NCBI GenBank assembly: GCA_016783665.1
Contig: JADHWC010000002.1
Span: 2,371-66,370, forward strand
Direction: 5' to 3'
From: Fidelibacterota bacterium
GTDB lineage: Bacteria; Fidelibacterota; UBA2242
DNA length: 64,000 bases
In this document: positions 2,017 to 60,872 of the stretch, one piece after another
How positions within the stretch are numbered: the first letter of the stretch is position 1
Layout: every line of letters starts with the position of its first letter
Translations under genes and position numbers: made by a program
The notes under the pieces: model-generated
Databases searched by the model: none
What the model saw: only the letters and a program-made list of their open reading frames with translations
What the model was told of the DNA's origin: nothing

Positions 2017-2517
2017 TCAATAAGCTTTATATCCATAAGATTGACTGTATCTGGCTACTTTTTTCCCCGACCTGTTGTCATAAAACGTAATTCTTCCAGT
2101 CGATCCGGCCCTGTCACAGATTTTTGCTAATGTGATCCCAATTCCAACTTTTGTATCATAATCTAATGAATTCCAGATGTAAACATCGATCATCGCTTCG
2201 TTTTGATCAATGTCTAATTTTTTTAAAAGTCCCGAATCATACAATACTTGAAGGTCATCGTTATTGGTTTGGGTGGAATACTTTAGACTTGTGTTTGTTT
2301 TAAAGGTTGTTGAAGGCTCATAAATCCAGCCTTCAACAGTAACCTTAACCCATTTCCCCTCTTTTTGAATCTTTTTTACTTCGGTTCCTTTTAATAGTAC
2401 ACCGATTTTATCTCCATTGGGACTTGACCTAAAATTTTCGCTGTCAGCAATTACTTTACCTGTTTGACTGTATATAATGGAAAAATTAAGAATGAGTATT
2501 AATAATATGTTTTTCAT
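2017..2517 (-). CDS. Secreted protein with a bacterial SH3 (SH3b)-like domain.
   Basis: Signal peptide (MKNILLILILNFSIIYS). The segment SPNGDKIGVLLKGTEVKKIQKEGKWVKVTVEGWIY resembles an SH3_3 fold. Confidence 0.45.
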   Translation of the reverse strand: MKNILLILILNFSIIYSQTGKVIADSENFRSSPNGDKIGVLLKGTEVKKIQKEGKWVKVTVEGWIYEPSTTFKTNTSLKYSTQTNNDDLQVLYDSGLLKKLDIDQNEAMIDVYIWNSLDYDTKVGIGITLAKICDRAGSTGRITFYDNRSGKKVARYSQSYGYKAY

Positions 2518-2537
2518 TTTACCTCCAGATTAGAATT

Positions 2538-2804
2538 TTATACTTCTTTCCCGCAGTATCGACAGACCTTTGCCTCTGATTTAATTAACTCAGCGCAATA
2601 TGGACACTTTTTATTTTCACCACTATCAATCTTTTCTTTTTCAATTTTTTTCTCATCCGGTTTAGAAACTAAAACAATGATAAACCCAATTAACGGACTG
2701 AGAGCTACCGATATTAAAAAATATCCAAAACCAGACTTTCCTTTACTTGAAGCATACATTCCCACAAGAACCGCTAAAATTAACCAGGTGATAATAATTT
2801 CCAT
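2538..2804 (-). CDS. Small two-TM membrane protein with a C-terminal zinc ribbon.
   Basis: Two hydrophobic helices, then a Lys/Glu-rich linker, then CPYC...CRYC. Confidence 0.5.
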   Translation of the reverse strand: MEIIITWLILAVLVGMYASSKGKSGFGYFLISVALSPLIGFIIVLVSKPDEKKIEKEKIDSGENKKCPYCAELIKSEAKVCRYCGKEV

Positions 2805-2882
2805 GATTCCCTCCGATTGTTATGTTTTAAAATACTTTGCCGGGACACGTATCGCCCTATCCGGTCAATATATCAATAATAT

Positions 2883-3155
2883 TTACTTTAGTTTATATCC
2901 GCAATGTTCACATTCAAAAGTATCACCTTGATTGTATTTATTGCACTCAGGACATTTCCATCTGACTGATGTTGATGTATTTTTTACAAGTTTTTCCAAA
3001 AGTTCGGTGATTTTGTTTATCTTGAAATACCAGCACCAAAATTCTCTTAAAAACAGAAAAACAACTAAAATGAATGCGATTAATAGTATTGCGTTTACAC
3101 CTTGAGAAATCGAAAAACCGCCCATATTACCTCCATTTAAGTTTAGCCGGGACAC
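2883..3155 (-). CDS. Small single-pass membrane protein with a C-terminal C4 zinc ribbon (paralog A).
   Basis: TM helix AILLIAFILVVFLFL, then the same 26-aa juxtamembrane block as 1000..1293, then CPEC...CEHC. A GGAGG ribosome-binding site precedes the ATG. Confidence 0.55.
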   Translation of the reverse strand: MSRLNLNGGNMGGFSISQGVNAILLIAFILVVFLFLREFWCWYFKINKITELLEKLVKNTSTSVRWKCPECNKYNQGDTFECEHCGYKLK

Positions 3156-3378
3156 TTTCCACTAAAAACATCCCTGCCTTTTTTGCCCCACCGTAAAGAT
3201 ATATTTTCAATTGGTTTAATACTAATCAGTTTCTTTGGAAGCCATACTTTGCGACCAGTATTATCAATCTGAACCGCTTTATCGGTTTCCGTTAAAATGA
3301 TTGTCTCAATCTCAGTACGATTATTGATTTTTAATATTTGATCGATCTAGGTCATTTAAATAGAATAGGGCTGATAAA

Positions 3379-4296
3379 TTAAATATATAGCTGAATAATA
3401 TCGTCGATAAAAGTTCTTTTCTTCGCACTAATAATACTAACATTAATGTAAAAATCTTCATCCCACAGAATTTTTTCTATTATTTGTTCGATATATTTCC
3501 ATTTTTCATTAGAAGAATATGAAGATTTATATATTTTATGTAAATCAATTCTATCCATTTGAAATAATTCATCTAAATCACTCACAGGATGTCCTGCTAA
3601 TGTAATCCCATAAAGACCTTTTAAATAATTAAAATCATCTTCGGAGCTATATTTTTTTATATATTTGATATATTCAGGTAATTCTTCTTTTAATTCTTTT
3701 AATTCTCTAAACATATATTCTTTATTAGGAACATTTTTTAAGTCTTTCCTTTTATATCTTATATACAATTCTTTATATTCAAAGTCATTATAATCAATAG
3801 AGTAGACCATATCGGTTGTTTCAAATACTTTTATACTATCTTCCTTATAATAAATTTCAACCAATATCTTAATATTTTTTAATTGGTATTCACTATCATT
3901 GACTAATTTTATTTTTATATCATCAACTCTATAACTAGATAAAAATAAATTTTTATATTCCTTTAACTCAACACTTACTTTATCTAATGGAATTTTTTGG
4001 TTGTTAAAGTATATTCCAACAATTATGATAATCAACAACGGCGGTAGTATATATAACGAGATTTTTAATAATCTTTTCCCTACTTTAATAAACATATTTT
4101 TAATTTTTTTAAAACTACTTCTTGAGAATAAATAGACTTCAATTAAAAAGATACCTAATAAATATATTAACCATGTAAAGGAAGAATATTCAAAATCATC
4201 CCATTCACTTCCTAGAATTCCTAACACTAAAACAAGTAGAAACAAGGGTGCTATAATTCCAGTAATTTTAGTAATAGGAGAGAAATTATTTGCCAT
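3379..4296 (-). CDS. Membrane protein of 305 aa (about 3 N-terminal TM helices plus a Lys/Tyr/Glu-rich soluble domain). Function unknown. AT-rich.
   Basis: Hydrophobic N-terminal segments. Strong AT bias like the rest of the 1-4300 island. No conserved motif recognised. Confidence 0.45.
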   Translation of the reverse strand: MANNFSPITKITGIIAPLFLLVLVLGILGSEWDDFEYSSFTWLIYLLGIFLIEVYLFSRSSFKKIKNMFIKVGKRLLKISLYILPPLLIIIIVGIYFNNQKIPLDKVSVELKEYKNLFLSSYRVDDIKIKLVNDSEYQLKNIKILVEIYYKEDSIKVFETTDMVYSIDYNDFEYKELYIRYKRKDLKNVPNKEYMFRELKELKEELPEYIKYIKKYSSEDDFNYLKGLYGITLAGHPVSDLDELFQMDRIDLHKIYKSSYSSNEKWKYIEQIIEKILWDEDFYINVSIISAKKRTFIDDIIQLYI

Positions 4297-5213
4297 AATA
4301 ATATTTCCTACTATAATATATAGATAACAAATCCCACTTCAAAATAATTTTTTCCCGTTTGGTGTAAGTGTGGGTATAAATGAATATCAAGGGGGGTGCC
4401 CCCCGCAGGTGGGGGGTGTGCCCGGTTTCAAAAAACTATTTCTTATTTGATTATACAGCATATTATCTTTAACACCGTGTGCGTGAAAGCCCCCACAATA
4501 TTCCAGTAGTCATTCATTTCAATTTATATATAGGGCATTAGGTATCTTTAAATGGTAGTAGAGGCAATAATATTTGTTGATAGAATGTTAGATTTGAATA
4601 CTACCTGATTGAAATATCGGCATATTATAATGAAAATAAAAACAGTAAGAGTCCAATTGAATAACTGCAAATAGAGGAAATACTTTCAGAAATTGATTTC
4701 TCGTCGAGAAAAGGATTGACAGAATGACAAAATTAAGCCCGTATACCCGTTCAGTATACCCCGGAATTGATTTTCTCGTCGGGAAATATTTCCGGTATCC
4801 TAATTCCCAAGCTGGATACGGGGGTTCTATTCCCCTCACCCGCTCAAAGTCGTAATTGGATAACTTACATTTCTTACGTCATTGCAGGTTTGGCATTCAT
4901 CATAAATAGCTCGTTCCCAAGCCCCAGCTTGGGAATGCCAGCGAAAGACGTGATGGTTATTTGGAACCTGCCTTATGAAATAGTTTAAATCTTTGAAAGA
5001 GAAAACTAATTTAAAGTTTATTCACAGGGTAAATCGAATTGAACATTGGAATTTTATAGGAGACTACTTATAGATAACTCTTTCCAGGAGTAGAGCATAT
5101 ATTTACTATTGAAGTTGTATATGATAAATGGCGAAATTAGGCACGCGATTTTTAAATAATATCAGAAGAAAAACAGAGCAAAATAAATATCCATAAACTC
5201 TAACAATATATAC

Positions 5214-6500
5214 ATGATAAAAATTATCTCAGTAAAGAATGGAAGCAGGGCCGATGTTGCCGGTATTTGTGCTAACGATTATTTAATCTCGCTCAACGGT
5301 CATGAAATTAACGATCTCTTGGATTACCATTTCTGCCAGGCTGAAGAAAATCTGACTATTACATTTAGCCGTAATAAATCACAACAACAGGTATTGATAC
5401 AAAAAGCATTCGATGAGGACCTGGGAATTGAAGTGGATGGTTTGCGTGTTAGAGCCTGTTCGAATAATTGTATATTCTGCTTTATCAAACAGAATCCTCC
5501 GGGAATGAGGCAAGCGATATATTTCTGTGATGAAGATTATCGTTATTCATTTCTCTACGGGAGTTACATTACATTAACCGATCTAAATGATAAGGAACTT
5601 TACCGTATCGTCGAGCAGCGACTATCACCGTTATATATTTCGGTTCATGCCACCGAGCCGGATGTTAGAAAATCAATATTTCGGTTCAGATTCGATGATC
5701 GTTTAATGGAGAAAATAGATTATTTACACCGGAACCGGATAGAACTACATACTCAGATTGTGCTTATGCCCGGGATGAACGACGGGGAAATTCTTGAGAA
5801 AACGATTACCGATCTATATAGATTCAGGGATTCTATAAAAACACTGGCGCTTGTGCCGGTGGGGTTGACAAGACATCGAAAAAAATTGCCGCACTTAAAT
5901 CCTGTGACGAAAGAATTGGCAAGTGAGCTGGTGTATCGCTCCGAATATTGGAACCGTCGATATAGGAACAATGAAGGCGATCCGTTTGTCTACTTATCTG
6001 ATGAATTTTATCTGCTGGCGAACCAGCCGTTTCCAATCACCGGTCACTATGGTCCCTATTACCAGGTTGAGAATGGTGTGGGATTATGCCAGCAACTGAT
6101 TGATTCTGTGGAACAACAGCGTCAGGATTTCCCGAAAACTTTGTCAAAACCAAAGAGGATTGGGTTTATCACGAGCAAATTGGCGGAACCGGTACTGTGT
6201 GATTATCTGTTGCCTTATTTGAATATGATCGCTAATCTTACGGTTGAGACACTGACGGTGACGAATCACTTTTTCGGCGAAACAGTTACAGTATCAGGGC
6301 TATTGACCGGGCAGGATATTGTTGAACAATTTCCTAAATCGTTAAAATATGATTTGATCTTTTTACCACCGAGGTGTATAAATGAAGACGGGTTGCTTTT
6401 GGATGATATGACTCCGGAGGATATAGGAAAAGCGGTCGGGAGCCCGGTTTTAGTTGGAAGTGATGATATAGTCGAGATGGTAACATATGGCGAAATGTGA
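5214..6500 (+). CDS. PDZ domain-containing radical SAM protein (DUF512-type).
   Basis: N-terminal PDZ-like segment. CSNNCIFCF (CxxxCxxC) radical-SAM cluster motif. Its end overlaps the der start. Confidence 0.65.
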   Translation: MIKIISVKNGSRADVAGICANDYLISLNGHEINDLLDYHFCQAEENLTITFSRNKSQQQVLIQKAFDEDLGIEVDGLRVRACSNNCIFCFIKQNPPGMRQAIYFCDEDYRYSFLYGSYITLTDLNDKELYRIVEQRLSPLYISVHATEPDVRKSIFRFRFDDRLMEKIDYLHRNRIELHTQIVLMPGMNDGEILEKTITDLYRFRDSIKTLALVPVGLTRHRKKLPHLNPVTKELASELVYRSEYWNRRYRNNEGDPFVYLSDEFYLLANQPFPITGHYGPYYQVENGVGLCQQLIDSVEQQRQDFPKTLSKPKRIGFITSKLAEPVLCDYLLPYLNMIANLTVETLTVTNHFFGETVTVSGLLTGQDIVEQFPKSLKYDLIFLPPRCINEDGLLLDDMTPEDIGKAVGSPVLVGSDDIVEMVTYGEM

Positions 6501-7809: not shown

Positions 7810-9519
7810 ATGAACCATATTTATAGAATAATTTTGTTATCTTGTCTATTATGGTTTCCGGTAATGGGAAAAGATTCCTTTACGGCGATTAAAGAATATA
7901 TTGATTCCGGTACTGCCGACCATCGATATCAATACTCCGCTTCAACAAGTGAAGTATTGGCAATTAAATCTGTAATGATCCATCCTGAACATCGGGAAAA
8001 GATATTAGGGAAAGCCCAATTCAGCAGACCGGTATTGGATAAAAACTATATTAGCGCTGACGGTCATTTTAAAATCCACTATACCACCTCAGGATATCAT
8101 GCGGTCGATACAATCTCAACTCATGTACCCGGTGTGCCTGATTGGGTCTGGGAAACGGCTGAAACCGCTGAATATGCCTACAGATTGCTTGTGGATACTC
8201 TTGGATTTGATCCGCCGCCTCAGGATAATTACGGCGGACCGGAATCGGATATTTATATCAAGAATTGGGAGGGGACGTATCCATTACCATATGCTTATAC
8301 ATATCCCGAAGATCCTGTCACTTCTACAACTGATCAACCCTATGATTATACATCCTATATGGTTATAGATAATGATTATCAAGAACCTGGGTATGCCACA
8401 CATGGTATAGACGCCCTGCATGTAACTGTTGCTCATGAATATTTTCATATGATCCAATTAGGATACAACTGGTGGGATTCAAACGGATTAGTAGGGAGCT
8501 CCTACGGAGACAGATACTTTCTGGAATGGTCATCGACCTGGTTTGAAGAGCGGGCATACTCCGAAGTAAATGATTATGTACAATATATTGCAGCATTTTT
8601 CTATCGTCCGACGGATTATCTCTGGGCTTCAAACTACGAATATGCGATGGGACCATTCCTCTATTTTCTCCAGGATATATACGATGATGAGCTGCTTGTT
8701 CGTAAGATATGGGATAAAATTAAGCGCCAATACGCCTTTCAATCGTTGACTGAAGTGATAGATGAAAAGGGCGGCAACCTTGCAACTCTTTACAATGACT
8801 TTGTGAGAGCCTGTTACTATACCGGTTCACGCTACGATGAAAATTATGCGGTGTCTCCCGATGCCGCCGGTTTTCCGGAATTAATTATTCCTACAGCGAA
8901 CAGGGGCACATTAGATACTCTTTTACAGTTTCAAAGCGATATAAAACCCTTTACGACTTTCCCCTATATGATAACATTTGAAGATAACCAATTTGTAGAA
9001 TTAGATATAAGTCCATCAATACAAGATGTTTTTATCGGAAGTTATCTTATTGATAAGTCAACCACTACGGATACTCATCGGAAGTTTGGAATGGATACGG
9101 ATGTATTTGTTGGTGAAACCCGCTATAATGATCGGTTAATGATCTTAATGACAAACAGTTCGATTGATTCAATCTATCATCTCGATTTGCAGGTTAATAA
9201 ATTGATGGATACTCTGAGTATATCATCGAAAATATTATCAATTTACGCCAATCCATTTTCATGGCAACAACAAAAGCCACTGACTATTGAGTTTCAATTG
9301 AGTCATTTTACGAATAAATTATCGGTGAATATCTTTAACCTGATTGGACAAAAAGTATACGGGCAACATTTGAATGTTTATGACTATAATCCCGGTGTGA
9401 ATGACATTCAAATCCCCGCAGATGTATTTAGATCAAAAAATCTAAGTTCGGGGATTTATTTTTTACAGATAGTAACTGACCGAAAAAGAATTACGAAGAA
9501 ATTTACATTATTGAACTAA
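7810..9519 (+). CDS. Secreted HExxH zinc-metalloprotease-like protein with a T9SS C-terminal sorting domain.
   Basis: Signal peptide. HEYFHMIQ (HExxH). The C-terminus SGIYFLQIVTDRKRITKKFTLLN is typical of the Por/T9SS C-terminal domain. Confidence 0.7.
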   Translation: MNHIYRIILLSCLLWFPVMGKDSFTAIKEYIDSGTADHRYQYSASTSEVLAIKSVMIHPEHREKILGKAQFSRPVLDKNYISADGHFKIHYTTSGYHAVDTISTHVPGVPDWVWETAETAEYAYRLLVDTLGFDPPPQDNYGGPESDIYIKNWEGTYPLPYAYTYPEDPVTSTTDQPYDYTSYMVIDNDYQEPGYATHGIDALHVTVAHEYFHMIQLGYNWWDSNGLVGSSYGDRYFLEWSSTWFEERAYSEVNDYVQYIAAFFYRPTDYLWASNYEYAMGPFLYFLQDIYDDELLVRKIWDKIKRQYAFQSLTEVIDEKGGNLATLYNDFVRACYYTGSRYDENYAVSPDAAGFPELIIPTANRGTLDTLLQFQSDIKPFTTFPYMITFEDNQFVELDISPSIQDVFIGSYLIDKSTTTDTHRKFGMDTDVFVGETRYNDRLMILMTNSSIDSIYHLDLQVNKLMDTLSISSKILSIYANPFSWQQQKPLTIEFQLSHFTNKLSVNIFNLIGQKVYGQHLNVYDYNPGVNDIQIPADVFRSKNLSSGIYFLQIVTDRKRITKKFTLLN

Positions 9520-56151: not shown

Positions 56152-56343
56152 TTGCCTGTCTCGATTTCATTATCTCTCGTTCCGGGGGCTCTTGCTCCGG
56201 AACGTTATCATTCAGCAGATCGGTTGCAGAGTGCAACCCTGCAACCAGGAATAATGGCAGGCAACTACCGTCTATCGTGGAATGCTGCTGAATTTCCCTC
56301 TGGTATGTACTTTTACCAATTTCAGACTGATGGGTTTTCTTAG
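56152..56343 (+). pseudogene. Orphan fragment resembling a T9SS C-terminal sorting domain.
   Basis: ...NYRLSWNAAEFPSGMYFYQFQTDGFS* resembles the distal part of Por C-terminal domains (compare SGIYFLQIVTD at 9480). There is no upstream secreted domain or signal peptide. Confidence 0.3.
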
Positions 56344-56492
56344 ACCCGCAGAATGATATTGGTGAAATAACCCATAGAAGCCATAAGAACCTTCGGAAGG
56401 TTAGGTAGATTCAATAAATACGCATTTCATTTTATTGAAAAAATAGTAAATTAATCCCATTATGGGTACAAGATATAGCTGTAAATATTACC

Positions 56493-57965
56493 ATGGAGAT
56501 TTTTATTATGAAACAGATGACCATATTCATTGAAATGATTCTGTCCCTGGGAATTATAGCCGGTCTTTTTCAATGTTCCGGTAAACCATCATATAATGAA
56601 TTAATAAAAAGTGGTGAGTTCAAAGAAGCGCGTCGGTTAATTATGGAAGATTTAAGTATGAATCAATATGTGTCGGAAAATTTACGGGCTGACTTAAATT
56701 TTAATCTTATCCGCATGGACCGGATTGAAATGGATTTTACGCTTACCGAAGAAAAAGTAATTGAATACATCAAGCAATATGTTCCTGATGTAACTCAGGA
56801 AGATTTAAGAAGATGGGAAGAAGAAAAGTCTCTGGAATATCAAATCATCGATGGACAAAAACGGTATTTTAAATATGCGCAATATAATCTCTTTCGTCTG
56901 AATAAAGAGTTAAAAATCATCAAGAAAAATGTAGATGCGCAAAAAGAAAATGATTCGAAAAGGAAAAAATTTCCGCTGGATGATCATATCAAAGATATCA
57001 TAACAGCGGCAGTGAAAAGTGGTGAAAAATATGTTCAGCCGGTTAAATTGCGGATTAAACAAAGCTTGATTGTTGATAAAAATGTCGTTCCCGAAGCTGA
57101 GACTCTTTGCTGTTGGATTCCTTTTCCAAGGGATATTGAGAACCGGCAAACCGATATCCAAATACTAAGAACCGAGCCTGACGTGTATCAGCTTGCCGAC
57201 AACCGGAATCTGCAACGGACAATCTATTTTGAGAAACCGGCAAAGAGTGATGAACCAACTGAATTTTTCGTGGAATATACGTATCTATCCCATGGAGTTT
57301 TTGTGCCAATTGATCCAGATAAGGTATTGCCAACGCCTCAGAATGAAAATTTGAAACCTTACCTTTGTGAACGAGGGTACCATATTGAATTCACACCCCG
57401 ATTGAAGGAACTTTCCAAATCCCTCATCGGCGATGAAAAAAATCCCTATCGTATTGCCCAAAAATTATTTGTGTGGGTAGATACGAATATTACCTGGGCT
57501 TCTGCCCGTGAGTACTCCACCTTTTTTAGTATTCCTCATTATGTTATTAAAAACCGACATGGTGATTGCGGGATGCAAACATTGACGTTAATGACGCTTT
57601 GCCGTTTGAATGGAATTCCAACAAAATGGCAGTCAGGATGGGAATTTCAGCCACCCGATGACAGTATGCATGACTGGGGCGAAATCTATTTTGAACCTTA
57701 TGGCTGGGTTCCAATGGATGTGACTTATGGTTTGCGAAAAACGACGGATGAAGAACTAAAATGGTTTTATTTATCAGGAATGGACAGCTATCGTCTGATA
57801 TTCAATGATGATTATTGTATGAAATTTGAACCTGAAAAGAAACATATCCGGTCCGAAACTATCGATTCCCAGCGCGGCGAAGTAGAGTGGAAAGAAGCAA
57901 ATCTCTATTTCGATAAATGGGATTGGAACCTTGAATGGGAGGTAATTCAACCTTCGGAAGGTTAA
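56493..57965 (+). CDS. Transglutaminase-like cysteine-protease-fold protein, secreted.
   Basis: Signal and hydrophobic N-terminus. Transglutaminase core (RHGDCGMQTLTLMTLCRLNGIP ... H ... D). Confidence 0.7.
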   Translation: MEIFIMKQMTIFIEMILSLGIIAGLFQCSGKPSYNELIKSGEFKEARRLIMEDLSMNQYVSENLRADLNFNLIRMDRIEMDFTLTEEKVIEYIKQYVPDVTQEDLRRWEEEKSLEYQIIDGQKRYFKYAQYNLFRLNKELKIIKKNVDAQKENDSKRKKFPLDDHIKDIITAAVKSGEKYVQPVKLRIKQSLIVDKNVVPEAETLCCWIPFPRDIENRQTDIQILRTEPDVYQLADNRNLQRTIYFEKPAKSDEPTEFFVEYTYLSHGVFVPIDPDKVLPTPQNENLKPYLCERGYHIEFTPRLKELSKSLIGDEKNPYRIAQKLFVWVDTNITWASAREYSTFFSIPHYVIKNRHGDCGMQTLTLMTLCRLNGIPTKWQSGWEFQPPDDSMHDWGEIYFEPYGWVPMDVTYGLRKTTDEELKWFYLSGMDSYRLIFNDDYCMKFEPEKKHIRSETIDSQRGEVEWKEANLYFDKWDWNLEWEVIQPSEG

Positions 57966-58055
57966 ACCAAGTCTCCGCGAGATAAGAAACTAAAAACTCT
58001 TGATTATAAGAAAAATATAAGTTATACTTTATTAAGTACTAAAAAAGGTGTAAAA

Positions 58056-58340
58056 ATGAATACTATTCCAGCACAAGAGATCAAACGAAAAGGAATTAGC
58101 GCCGTTGATGAAGAACTAAAAAAGGGGCCAGTTCATATCATTAAAAATAACCGACCACAATATGTTATCTTAGATGAATCAACTTACGATGAGTTAATCA
58201 AAGAACAGGAAAATTCGTATCTCCTTCGAATACAATCAGCTTTGGAGGATATTAAGAATAAAAAAGTTAAGCGATTTGGCTCAGTTTCAGATTTTATGAA
58301 CACCATTGAAAACTATCCAGAAAACCAATGTTCACTTTAG
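58056..58340 (+). CDS. Type II antitoxin, Phd/YefM family.
   Basis: 94 aa. PVHIIKNNRPQYVILDESTYDELI...SYLL matches the YefM pattern. Overlaps the downstream toxin by 13 nt. Confidence 0.7.
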   Translation: MNTIPAQEIKRKGISAVDEELKKGPVHIIKNNRPQYVILDESTYDELIKEQENSYLLRIQSALEDIKNKKVKRFGSVSDFMNTIENYPENQCSL

Positions 58341-58603
58341 TTGTACCGGATCAATTTTTAAAGACAGCTAATAAATTTTTCAAACATCATCCTGATCTGA
58401 GGTCTCAATTTAAAAAAATTATAGAGATATTAATTAAGGATCCAATACATCCTTCTCTACAATTACATTCGCTTAAAGGAAAGTTCAAAGGTTTATCTGC
58501 CATTCGACTTACATATAAATATAGAATAACACTAATCATGCAAATAGAGAAAAAAGAAATTACCCTAATTGATATTGGCTCTCACAACAATATTTATCGT
58601 TAA
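58328..58603 (+). CDS. Type II toxin, RelE/ParE superfamily.
   Basis: 91 aa, basic. LKGKFKGLSAIRLTYKYRITLIMQIEKKEITLIDIGSHNNIY matches the RelE/ParE C-terminal core. Confidence 0.7.
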   Translation: MFTLVVPDQFLKTANKFFKHHPDLRSQFKKIIEILIKDPIHPSLQLHSLKGKFKGLSAIRLTYKYRITLIMQIEKKEITLIDIGSHNNIYR

Positions 58604-58712
58604 TTGACTTTTGTTTAGTGTGGTTGTCAAATTCCAATTTTGATAAATAGGATTGGAATCTTGAATGGGAAGTGCTTGAATAGGTCTTCATGATTTATCG
58701 GATAACATATCT

Positions 58713-60872
58713 ATGAATCGTATTACTCAAAAGTGCTTGATCTCGGTTTTAATTGCTGGTGTTTCTGCCGGGTTGGCGCTGATAGGTTCGCGGTTAATGC
58801 TTATCGATAGATGGGAAAAACAGGGACAGGATCTGCTTTATCGCAATGTTAATCCAGAGCAGCATCCTGACGAGGTCGTTATCATTGCAATTGACCAGAA
58901 CAGTCTGGATTATTTTCAGGAAAATTCTGGGATTCTATGGCCCTGGCCCCGTGATGTTTATGCGATGACCACTGATTATTTATCGCATTGCGGAGCGAAA
59001 TTAATTGCCTACGATATTATTTTTTCATCGCCTGATATTGATCGGCTGAATATTCAGGCAGCTTATGCCGACGCCCGGTTTTCAGAGGCAATGTTGCGTT
59101 CCGGGTGTGTCATTCTTGCTACCCAGATGGAGGATTCCACTCATAATACTCTTGAATCATTAGTAGATCAATTCTCAATTGAGGCACAATTTACGGGACC
59201 GGAACAATTAGTCTGGCGTTATCCAAATCTGACATTGCCGATACATCAATTTCAAAAAGGGATGGCAATTCCAGGAGCGGTGAATTTTTTCACCGATGAC
59301 GATGGCGTCTGCCGCCGCATTCCACTGTTATACAGCTATCAAAACAGAATATTGCCATATATGGCGCTGGCGGCGGCAATGCTTTATACTGGTGAGAGTA
59401 ATATTACTTACGATCGGAAGAAACAGACGTTTGAAATTGGAGATCATTCTATTCCGGTTGATAAAAATGGCATGTTTGAATTGTACTGGTATGGAGCGGG
59501 CGGACCCGGGAATACGTTTACCTATATTTCCTATGCCCAGTTGATCAATTCTTATTTGCAGTGGATAAATGGCGAAAAACCACAAGTCCCGGTTGAGACA
59601 TTTAAAGATAAAGCTGTGTTTATCGGAGCTACAGCCGCCGGACTTTTAGATTTGAAAACAACGCCTTTCAGTCCCGTTGAACCCTATCCGGGCGTTGAAA
59701 TTTATGCCACACTTTTTTTCAATATTATCCGGGGTGACCATATTTCTCATTTCGGAGATGGTTTATGGCTTTTTACCACATTTCTGATCCTGAGTCTGTT
59801 ATGCATGATCTGGCAGAATTTTAAGGTGTGGCAAGCCTCAATTGTTTCGTTAATCATATTCCTTGTTCCACTGATTTGTGCTGTACTTCTTTTTCAATAC
59901 CGGTTGATTTTTTTCCCGGCAGTTCGTTCTGAAATTGCCCTGATAGTATCCATTATTGGTGTTCTGGTAGTTAACTATCTTGCTGAGGGCAGGGAAAAAG
60001 CATTGGTTAAAAAGGTGTTCAACCGATACCTGCATCCGGCAATTGTCGATAATTTAACGCGTGACCCCGGTAAGATCGAAATGGGTGGTATGGAAATTGA
60101 AGCGACCGTACTGTTTACCGATTTGCAGGGATTCACAGGCACTTCGGAATTATTTGCGCCTCATGAAATCGTCCAGTTTCTTAATGATTACTTTGAACGA
60201 GTTGAAACAATAATATTCAAAAATAACGGAATGCTCGATAAATATACCGGTGATGGAATTATGGCTATCTTCGGCGCTCCGGTTGAATCAAAAGAACACG
60301 CCTTGCAAACCTGCCGGGCGGTGCTGGACTTTCAGGCATTATCGAAGATGAGTGTTGAAAAAGCCGGCAAAAAGGTGCCGTTGATAACCCGCGTGGGAGT
60401 AAATAGCGGGAATTTAATCGTGGGCAATATAGGTTCTCGAAACAGGATGGATTACACTGCGATTGGCGATACGGTTAACCTGTCCGCAAGGTTGGAGGGC
60501 GTCAATAAAGTATACGGCACTCAAAATATAATTTCTGAAAGCACCTATGATTTGGTGAAAGATGATATCGTGTGCAGGGAAATTGATTATATCCGGGTCA
60601 AGGGACGAGATAAACCGCTGAAGATATTTACGGTGATTGCCGAGAGAAGCGATATTGACAACAAAACTATGGAATTATTGTCTATACACAACGAAGCATT
60701 AGAGGTGTACCGCCGGAAAAAATACAGGAATGCCATTGAAAGCTTTTCAAAAGTGTTAAGCATACAACCAGATGATTCCGTTGCGCGGGTTTTTATTGAA
60801 CGCTGCCGGCAATTACTTAAGAATCCGGAGTTAATTGATGAAAAAGGTATTTTTAATATAACTGTGAAATGA
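58713..60872 (+). CDS. CHASE2-domain adenylate/guanylate cyclase with C-terminal TPR-like repeats.
   Basis: N-terminal TM, then a periplasmic CHASE2-like region, then 3 TM helices, then the class III cyclase core (FTDLQGFTG...GDGIMAIFGAP...GDTVNLSARLE). Confidence 0.8.
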   Translation: MNRITQKCLISVLIAGVSAGLALIGSRLMLIDRWEKQGQDLLYRNVNPEQHPDEVVIIAIDQNSLDYFQENSGILWPWPRDVYAMTTDYLSHCGAKLIAYDIIFSSPDIDRLNIQAAYADARFSEAMLRSGCVILATQMEDSTHNTLESLVDQFSIEAQFTGPEQLVWRYPNLTLPIHQFQKGMAIPGAVNFFTDDDGVCRRIPLLYSYQNRILPYMALAAAMLYTGESNITYDRKKQTFEIGDHSIPVDKNGMFELYWYGAGGPGNTFTYISYAQLINSYLQWINGEKPQVPVETFKDKAVFIGATAAGLLDLKTTPFSPVEPYPGVEIYATLFFNIIRGDHISHFGDGLWLFTTFLILSLLCMIWQNFKVWQASIVSLIIFLVPLICAVLLFQYRLIFFPAVRSEIALIVSIIGVLVVNYLAEGREKALVKKVFNRYLHPAIVDNLTRDPGKIEMGGMEIEATVLFTDLQGFTGTSELFAPHEIVQFLNDYFERVETIIFKNNGMLDKYTGDGIMAIFGAPVESKEHALQTCRAVLDFQALSKMSVEKAGKKVPLITRVGVNSGNLIVGNIGSRNRMDYTAIGDTVNLSARLEGVNKVYGTQNIISESTYDLVKDDIVCREIDYIRVKGRDKPLKIFTVIAERSDIDNKTMELLSIHNEALEVYRRKKYRNAIESFSKVLSIQPDDSVARVFIERCRQLLKNPELIDEKGIFNITVK

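Follow-up and report, generated by a model that had tools for sequence, protein, structure and literature searches.

A compact type II toxin-antitoxin (TA) cassette sits at the 3' end of a transglutaminase-like gene (TG) in the stretch of DNA analyzed here, 64,000 nt of contig JADHWC010000002.1 (hereafter the window, always meaning this whole stretch). The contig belongs to a metagenome-assembled genome of an uncultured marine bacterium, placed by its TG homologues in the Marinimicrobia (Neomarinimicrobiota/Fidelibacterota). The cassette is inserted between TG and the CHASE2-adenylate/guanylate cyclase gene (CYC) that follows it, flanked by two direct copies of the end of TG, and comparison of the sequences shows that it has moved horizontally into at least three host clades. 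We consider it probable, if far from certain, that it represents the "occupied allele" of one chromosomal site, exchanged between genomes through homology-guided recombination carried out by the host. Relatives compared with the window are designated by locus (L001 and following), and all genomes are metagenome assemblies; two of the window proteins are found in NCBI as MBL7066327.1 (toxin) and MBL7066325.1 (TG), on a contig of 72.8 kb. The features of the site are listed in Table 1.

The two copies share a 32-nt core with 3 mismatches (29/32), and ungapped extension gives a direct repeat of 53 nt at 81% identity with a spacing of 730 nt. The original prediction had described a 37-bp duplication with three mismatches made of the last codons of TG. 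The repeat is real, although three mismatches fit 32 nt and the 37-nt spans carry six; likewise, copy 1 does lie within the 3' end of the gene (codons 474-484 of the 490-codon open reading frame, ORF), yet it is not the very end, since seven more codons, (V)IQPSEG, and a stop follow it unrepeated (IQPSEG* at 57945-57965, the asterisk denoting a stop codon here and below). The other particulars held, the Phd/YefM-RelE pair lying between the copies and one mismatch turning TGG into the stop TAG at 58648-58650. Read in the frame of TG, copy 2 gives NSNFDK*DWNLEWEVLE*, corresponding to the strongly conserved peptide NLYFDKWDW.LEWE encoded by the TG 3' end. It has been disrupted independently in other genomes, by TAG or TGA at other Trp codons (L002, L003, and L006) or by TGT (L012), and is intact in L001.

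Within the window the 32-mer occurs at only two sites when up to 3 mismatches are allowed, and none are expected from 100 dinucleotide-preserving shuffles. We give a negligible probability to the repeat being a coincidence, a dispersed repeat of generic type or an artifact of assembly, for which nothing speaks beyond the AT-rich composition: apart from the shuffles and the presence of just two copies in the window, its reading frame is that of the conserved peptide and the same architecture is found in independent assemblies from NCBI, JGI, ENA, and Logan.

Table 1. Features of the occupied site (positions within the 64,000-nt window).
Feature	Position	Strand	Basis or remark
Transglutaminase-like gene (TG), target gene	56493-57965	+	Pfam Transglut_core E=1.6e-17; 490-codon ORF
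Repeat copy 1	57898-57950 (core 57912-57943)	+	In frame in TG 3' end; core host-type compared with empty relatives L156 and L157
Inserted unit, 730 bp	57944-58673	+	Defined against empty sites; boundary ambiguous within shared TGGGARGT
Imported gene tail (V)IQPSEG*, with palindrome AACCTTCGGAAGGTT (57949-57963)	57944-57965	+	Native TG tail type of the L010/L158/L159 clade
Promoter-like site TTGATT-17-TATACT	58000-58028	+	Sequence pattern
Imperfect palindrome centered on AGTACT	58022-58053	+	Candidate operator
Antitoxin gene, Phd/YefM-like, 94 aa	58056-58340	+	Pfam PF02604 E=3.2e-6, 27.3 bits, below the 29.8 cut-off
Toxin gene, YafQ/RelE-family mRNA interferase (predicted), 91 aa	58328-58603	+	Profile matches
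Spacer, toxin stop to copy 2	58604-58627	+	Conserved with the cassette; 92-96% identity within the clade
Repeat copy 2	58628-58680 (core 58642-58673)	+	Non-coding relic of TG 3' end
Displaced native TG tail (GTG)CTTGAATAG, VLE* plus native spacer to CYC start	58674-58712	+	Match to L157
CHASE2-adenylate/guanylate cyclase gene (CYC), downstream neighbor	58713-60872	+	Pfam and synteny; adjoins TG at empty sites

Occupied and empty sites

The order oxidoreductase (minus strand), TG, CYC, and M48 peptidase (OXR-TG-CYC-M48) is kept across about 20 species-level genomes, in most of which TG and CYC are separated by a gap of 12-80 nt; in the window as well, the M48 peptidase gene lies downstream of CYC. 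Three comparisons between occupied and empty sites could be made, each inside one host clade, with flank identities from 81-86% up to 98%. The first sets the window against the empty loci L156 and L157, with 91-92% nucleotide identity in TG and CYC. Both of these read GATAAATGGGATTGGAACCTTGAATGGGAAGT followed directly by GCTTGAATAGGTCTTCATGA and then the ATG of CYC, and in both TG ends in WEVLE*, the C-terminus also seen in TG homologues of the same 90% cluster; the L157 site is a single copy, GAATGGGAAGT joined to GCTTGAATAGGTC. Copy 2 of the window and the DNA downstream of it differ from the native end of L156/L157 by two substitutions in the copy and one in the spacer, the stretch 58674-58712 being identical to the L157 empty site at 38 of 39 nt (GGATAAC in the window vs. 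GGAAAAC in L157).

The second comparison, between L158 (occupied) and L159 (empty), involves two samples of one study (ENA ZHAN22-2 samples) with 98% identical TG and CYC genes. Here the cassette is flanked by a 99-nt direct repeat (94% identity) that takes in the last 15 TG codons and a long palindromic element, the whole of which, as seen in L158 and L159, is also carried by L001. The third places L006, L063, and L064 (occupied) beside L142, L143, and L005 (empty), with TG at 81-86% nucleotide identity. In all three comparisons the empty sites have one copy, with TG directly before CYC. A single copy had been the expected state of an empty site, and L156/L157, L159, and L142/L143/L005 all conform to it; the arrangement that had been named as contrary to an insertion, both copies standing without a TA module, was found in no genome among the loci compared.

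The inserted DNA can thus be delimited to 730 bp. It had been proposed that the two copies give the boundaries of the unit, and a bounded unit there is, although the inserted DNA runs from 57944 to 58673, so that one of the repeat copies belongs to the insert. The ends of the cassette read GTCAAATTCCAATTTTGAYAAATGG followed further on by GGGARGT on the right and AATTCAACC or CAAACCTCCGCAAGATAAG on the left. In the window, the last seven codons of TG and its stop derive from the insert, with AATTCAACCTTCGGAAGGTTAA as the tail (IQPSEG*). The 730 bp contain no ORF besides those of the TA pair, and no integrase, transposase or other recombinase; neither does any recombinase gene adjoin the cassette.

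Horizontal movement at a single site

The host clades bearing the cassette are that of the window (L001-L003, L062, L065, L145, and L155), that of L006, and that of L010, the latter with two cassette variants (L012 type and L158 type). Between these host clades TG has a nucleotide identity of 62-70%, and cassettes from different Marinimicrobia lineages are 88-97% identical. Compared with L006, the window has an identity at fourfold-degenerate sites of 0.29-0.34 over the four flanking genes, against 0.86 in the antitoxin and 0.89 in the toxin, and the corresponding values with L012 are 0.28-0.30, 0.84, and 0.78. The flanking genes are saturated at these sites (about 0.30 identical) and the TA genes are not, which shows horizontal movement. 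In a sliding identity profile, high identity, 93-100% with L006 and 83-97% with L012, is limited to an island at about 57990-58650. The non-coding promoter and spacer DNA of the window is 93-100% identical to that of L006, with 98-100% conservation in the promoter and palindrome region (58000-58053). The GC content of the cassette is 30.5%, vs. 40.9% for the window.

An ancestral cassette inherited vertically, lost repeatedly and conserved by purifying selection where it persists would account for the use of one site in all lineages, and deletion between direct repeats should be easy. We regard this as very improbable, and on the substitution pattern vertical inheritance with loss is excluded: the 78-89% identity at fourfold sites of the TA genes stands against about 30% in all four flanking genes, the non-coding promoter and spacer are conserved at the 93-100% given above for L006, and the base composition departs from that of the window. 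Recombination tracts reaching from the cassette into TG or CYC were also considered and rejected, as the flanks of occupied genomes are no closer to the window than the flanks of empty ones.

Every relative with at least 83% protein identity was found at TG-CYC. An antitoxin scan of metagenomes returned five loci at or above this identity, all of them at this site, the next best matches falling below 60% and in unrelated contexts. Toxin clusters above 84% identity numbered four among 5.8 billion proteins, with members on more than 25 contigs, and in every contig for which a flank was recovered the order was TG-antitoxin-toxin-CYC. A search for the same cassette with different flanks, suggested at the outset, therefore returned none. 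No plasmid, phage or viral carrier appeared as a DNA match in PLSDB or INPHARED or as a protein match in IMG/VR, and no integrase-bearing element lies between TG and CYC in the about 20 syntenic loci or in the more than 25 cassette-bearing contigs. The cassette had been called a discrete mobile unit. A sharply bounded island of high identity between lineages with saturated flanks does identify it as a discrete and horizontally moved unit; its mobility, however, is that of an allele exchanged at one locus and not that of a transposing element, since it was never seen at any other site.

Origin of the flanking copies and proposed route of exchange

The flanking copies themselves preserve a record of where they came from. 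The left 14 nt of copy 2 (CAAATTCCAATTTT) are common to all cassette variants and unlike the TG of every host, and must therefore have been carried along with the cassette and not regenerated at each insertion. In L006, copy 2 has 2 mismatches to copy 2 of L001 vs. 7 to its own copy 1, so it is of donor type, while copy 1 is of host type up to TGGGAAGT; copy 2 of L012 is of donor type too. Both copies of L158 carry the donor-type GATTTAGAATGGGAGGTAATT where the 98%-identical empty L159 has AATTTTGAGTGGAAGATAATT, from which it follows that the imported tract takes in the last codons of the host gene. In the window, both 32-nt cores are of host type and the outer edges are cassette-borne. Together with the tail of the window TG, which is of the L010/L159-clade type, this comparison of the copies indicates that the cassette picked up fragments of the target gene from earlier hosts on both sides, with exchange points that differ by event. 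The original prediction of an insertion at the 3' end of the gene with duplication of the target is thus right about the insertion, whereas the downstream copy is not always a fresh local duplicate, being of donor type in L006, L012, and L158.

A true long target duplication may account for the first insertion, with about 50-100 nt of the target being duplicated, comprising the last TG codons and, in some hosts, also the palindromic element behind them. In later passages between lineages the cassette would have been accompanied by pieces of that duplication. To a naive site with a single copy, its two flanking copies could then offer short arms of homology, also in genomes that are otherwise diverged to saturation, because the conserved peptide keeps the end of TG alike at the DNA level. 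Once donor DNA had entered the cell, host functions recombining in or beside the arms would bring the cassette in, and recombination between the two copies would take it out, and after each round the host gene may retain codons of the donor, or the relic codons of the host. The outcome in the window would be a TG with the foreign tail IQPSEG*, the cassette, and the displaced and decaying native end (K*DWNLEWEVLE*).

Two alternatives have to be weighed against this exchange of an occupied allele. One is that a recombinase encoded elsewhere acts at an attachment (att) site in the 3' end of TG on a non-autonomous cassette (similar to cis-mobilisable or Xer-dependent elements), the repeats being attL and attR. 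Occupation of the same site in every lineage would agree with it, as would the direct repeats overlapping the 3' end of a gene, like those of many integrative elements, the location of the exchange in L006 and L012 at the extreme right end of the homology, and the inverted repeat TTGAAT-N8-ATTCAA formed by the junction in the window. We find it unlikely all the same. The exchange points are not fixed, the donor sequence running through all of copy 1 in L158 and through none of it in L006, with host sequence in both cores of the window; the length of the repeat varies by lineage from about 35 to 99 nt, and the inverted repeat is absent from the L012-type junction. Moreover, no integrase-bearing element is present in the roughly 20 Marinimicrobia loci sharing the gene order, nor a recombinase in or next to the cassette. 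Given the variable tracts and the travelling downstream copy, homology-guided exchange of an occupied allele is favored over a recombinase acting at a fixed position.

The other alternative is that each insertion is a fresh long target duplication, with staggered breaks tens of bases apart being filled in around the cassette so that both copies derive from the recipient. Insertion with long target duplication has been described for restriction-modification units (Nobusato et al., 2000, Gene 259:99; Furuta et al., 2010, PMC2853133), and the latter study recognizes the class by an insert below 20 kb without mobility genes, flanking direct repeats of more than 30 bp, and an empty site with one copy. 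All of this is found here: a 730-bp insert with no mobility gene, repeats of 32 nt (core) or 53 nt in the window and 99 nt in L158, and single-copy empty sites. The host type of both cores in the window and the long, variable repeats also agree with fresh duplication. As a description of every event it nevertheless has a low probability, because the downstream copy is unlike the host target in L006 and L012, neither copy matches it in L158, and CAAATTCCAATTTT is cassette-borne; that both copies are the recipient's own target holds only for the 32-nt core of the window and fails for copy 2 of L006 and L012 and for both copies of L158. Fresh duplication could still explain the very first insertion.

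Several points also weigh against homology-guided exchange. The identical stretch at some junctions is very short: L006 has 8 nt on the left (TGGGAAGT) and 17 nt on the right, and L012 has 4 nt. This is shorter than what RecA-type recombination normally uses, so that illegitimate or microhomology joining, or another enzyme, may be involved. The host-type state of both cores in the window calls for gap repair, crossed ends or later gene conversion, and a single reciprocal (Campbell) crossover was rejected as the whole story for this locus on the same ground. All of the genomes are, moreover, metagenome assemblies of uncultured bacteria. Lastly, two empty loci with possible excision scars, which would speak for the exchange, are post hoc observations: in L005 the end of TG is identical at 40 of 41 positions to the window-type copy despite an overall identity of 70%, and in L013 (7396-7440) TG has an in-frame TAG at the same Trp codon as the relic of the window and an end like the L012-type relic. 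As excision scars both are suggestive only, and the TAG of L013 may reflect an excision that installed a decayed copy, an independent mutation or a sequencing error.

On the exchange of an occupied allele one can build further and propose, tentatively and with a good deal of doubt, that the flanking duplication serves the cassette for homing instead of being a passive scar. In that case a recombinase-free addiction module would have conserved fragments of the host gene as built-in arms, and recombination or repair by the host would suffice to spread it, remove it, and insert it anew.

Cassette features, neighboring elements and known systems

There is nothing unusual in the TA pair as such, to which NCBI has already given a name. 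The toxin matches the profiles PF15738 YafQ_toxin (34.8 bits, cut-off 30) and TIGR02385 RelE_StbE (34.8 bits, cut-off 27.9), with HP0894, HP0892, and YoeB as relatives in PDB; for the antitoxin, an NCBIfam profile match was not found. The two genes are co-directional, antitoxin first, with a 13-nt overlap. The two genes most probably act as a type II module of the standard kind, in which a labile antitoxin would neutralize the RNase toxin and repress the promoter through the AGTACT-centered palindrome, the likely operator. Addiction would penalize loss of the cassette and so help the allele to persist. In L012, an in-frame TAA at toxin codon 75 (7979-7981) removes the C-terminal GSHNNIYR, and several cluster members also have 74 aa; the nonsense codon indicates decay of the toxin in that lineage, being consistent with decay of an active toxin and not a proof of it.

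Other classes of element were tried for the cassette and rejected. Folded as single-strand DNA, neither of its ends exceeds shuffled sequence in stability (z -0.97 and -0.86), and no R''/R' core pair was seen, which discards an attC or integron cassette. There are no terminal inverted repeats joining the ends and the direct repeats, at 32-99 nt, are not of fixed length, as a transposon, insertion sequence or MITE would require, and no tRNA, tmRNA or Rfam RNA that could act as an attachment site was found at the cassette. Within copy 2 of the window (58629-58664), the left edge AAATTCCAAT is complementary to the region of the Trp codons ATTGGAAT, 13 nt downstream, and all four substitutions that separate this left edge from TG create that pairing, although the result is a weak stem (fold z -0.97), which the L012 type forms less completely.

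Several further elements are found around the same site. The palindrome AACCTTCGGAAGGTT has just two copies in the window, at 56388-56402 and 57949-57963, flanking TG. Together with a longer composite form, AACCTTCCGAAGGTTTTTCCAACGGAACTCCTGCGGAGARAACCTTCGGAAGGTT, it recurs on both sides of TG in several lineages (5773-5907 and 7454-7508 in L001; downstream of TG in L010, L012, L013, L158, and L159), and in some genomes it is translated as the C-terminus of TG (QPSEG* or GFSNGTPAEKTFGRL); it looks like a REP- or MITE-like element. In the P0014 lineage TG ends in DKWDYDLEWEVIQPSE. L065 (51-1466, minus strand, and about 1467-1705) has a 471-aa ORF, by eye a putative IS110-family transposase, whose insertion point is immediately left of the cassette promoter, in or at the AAGGTTAAACC segment of the palindrome. 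L003 carries a second insert of about 480 bp (8131-8612) inside the left edge of copy 2, with perfect 14-nt terminal inverted repeats (TAGTTCACCACTGA and TCAGTGGTGAACTA), a 13-nt target duplication (CCAATTTTGATAA), and a small ORF resembling by eye GxxExxY / PD-(D/E)xK-type proteins. In L063, a palindromic MITE-like insert at about 3820-3960 (CTGTCATTCTGA to TCAGAATGACAG) lies between copy 1 and the TA promoter and lengthens the TG reading frame (protein P0177, whose end includes IQHCHSERGTSEES). In L145, of the window clade, the spot has been rearranged once more: about 2.1 kb (2290-4400) stand in place of the sequence following the toxin stop, copy 2 and the initial ~90 nt of the cyclase gene among it, and encode a repeat protein of 639 aa (YYYENG...G.W repeats), MORN-like by eye and without a recorded Pfam match. 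L004 was considered as a case of other cargo at the TG site and discarded, as it merely has different downstream genes, with no cyclase gene. Upstream of TG, a short ORF of the window (56152-56343) ends in AAEFPSGMYFYQFQTDGFS and is conserved in L001, there with an extra insert; its C-terminus resembles by eye a type IX secretion C-terminal sorting domain, and it is probably the remnant of a secreted-protein gene.

We also scanned 52 loci with TA homologues of about 50% identity, from other bacteria, for flanking direct repeats. The strong matches were not target duplications, and in these loci the scan gave no support for a long target duplication in the remaining TA family. These strong matches (L077-L139) correspond to a repeat of about 50-70 nt around a GC-rich hairpin, AAGGCGGCCAATCGGCCGCCTT, with same-orientation copies around the TA pair and others elsewhere in the loci. 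A copy invariably precedes the antitoxin start by about 110 nt, and a second often follows the toxin at a distance of 35-70 nt. Most copies of the hairpin are preceded by TTAATTCAA, several of them also by GGGGACA further upstream, and TGCTGTTTC comes next. The repeat is found at 57, 421, and 1109 in L096, at 3891 and 4579 in L133, at 3891 and 4591 in L139, and at 4583, 5173, and 6762 in L102, and a neighboring unit precedes the TA pair in L096 and follows it in L133. The repeat may represent a cassette array or an abundant REP family, and it does not resemble a classical attC. The one other match, in L074, is a different repeat.

Among known systems, elements of the ICESt1/ICESt3 type and their integrase-less cis-mobilisable derivatives insert in the 3' end of protein or tRNA genes and rebuild it. 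The locus resembles them in that the repeats overlap the 3' end of a gene, a replacement end being supplied and the native end left on the far side, but its cassette is only 730 bp long, lacks an integrase, shares the site with no integrase-bearing relative, and has exchange points that vary. With the TA cassettes of chromosomal integrons it shares a promoter-bearing TA pair that forms a small, discrete and horizontally moving unit; unlike them, it has no attC-like structure, cassette array or integron integrase nearby, and the flanking repeat is the coding sequence of the target. Chromosomal type II TA modules lying between the genes of operons in E. coli and relatives, such as mazEF in relA-mazG, yafNO in dinB-yafP or ccdO157 in folA-apaH, are covered in passages of a 2020 review (Fraikin et al., 2020, PMC7167474), according to which the insertion sites are conserved and the movement and integration of such modules have not been elucidated. 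As in those E. coli-type modules, the pair lies between genes that are undisturbed in relatives, at a conserved site, with strain-variable presence and signs of decay. The same passages of the review describe no flanking long duplications, whereas here the junctions, the empty sites, and the tract are resolved to the nucleotide.

The value of this locus is that a TA insertion can be followed at nucleotide resolution, with an occupied/empty pair of 98% flank identity (L158/L159), at least three host clades with saturated flanks, and readable recombination tracts. Of all the systems considered, the restriction-modification units with long target duplication come closest as a precedent; their repeats are long, variable, and often span the stop codon so that the target gene stays intact, as in a 46-bp example at the 3' end of a gene of H. 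influenzae (PMC2853133). Furuta et al. suggested that these insertions depend on double-strand breakage by the restriction-modification systems (PMC2853133). Our locus extends this kind of insertion to a cargo whose predicted toxin cuts RNA, which points to host recombination or repair, and not the cargo, as the driver. If the proposed homing were true, insertion with long target duplication would need no DNA-cutting cargo, and if it were also general, it would offer chromosomal TA modules and restriction-modification units with long target duplications an enzyme-free route between genomes. The cassette is like those units in being small, of addiction type and free of mobility genes, with repeats above 30 bp and a single-copy empty site. 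It is unlike them in carrying a TA cargo with an RNase-type toxin instead of a DNA-cutting enzyme, and in two traits not described for the restriction-modification cases, namely that one cassette occupies one site in several divergent lineages and that its flanking copies are often derived from the donor.

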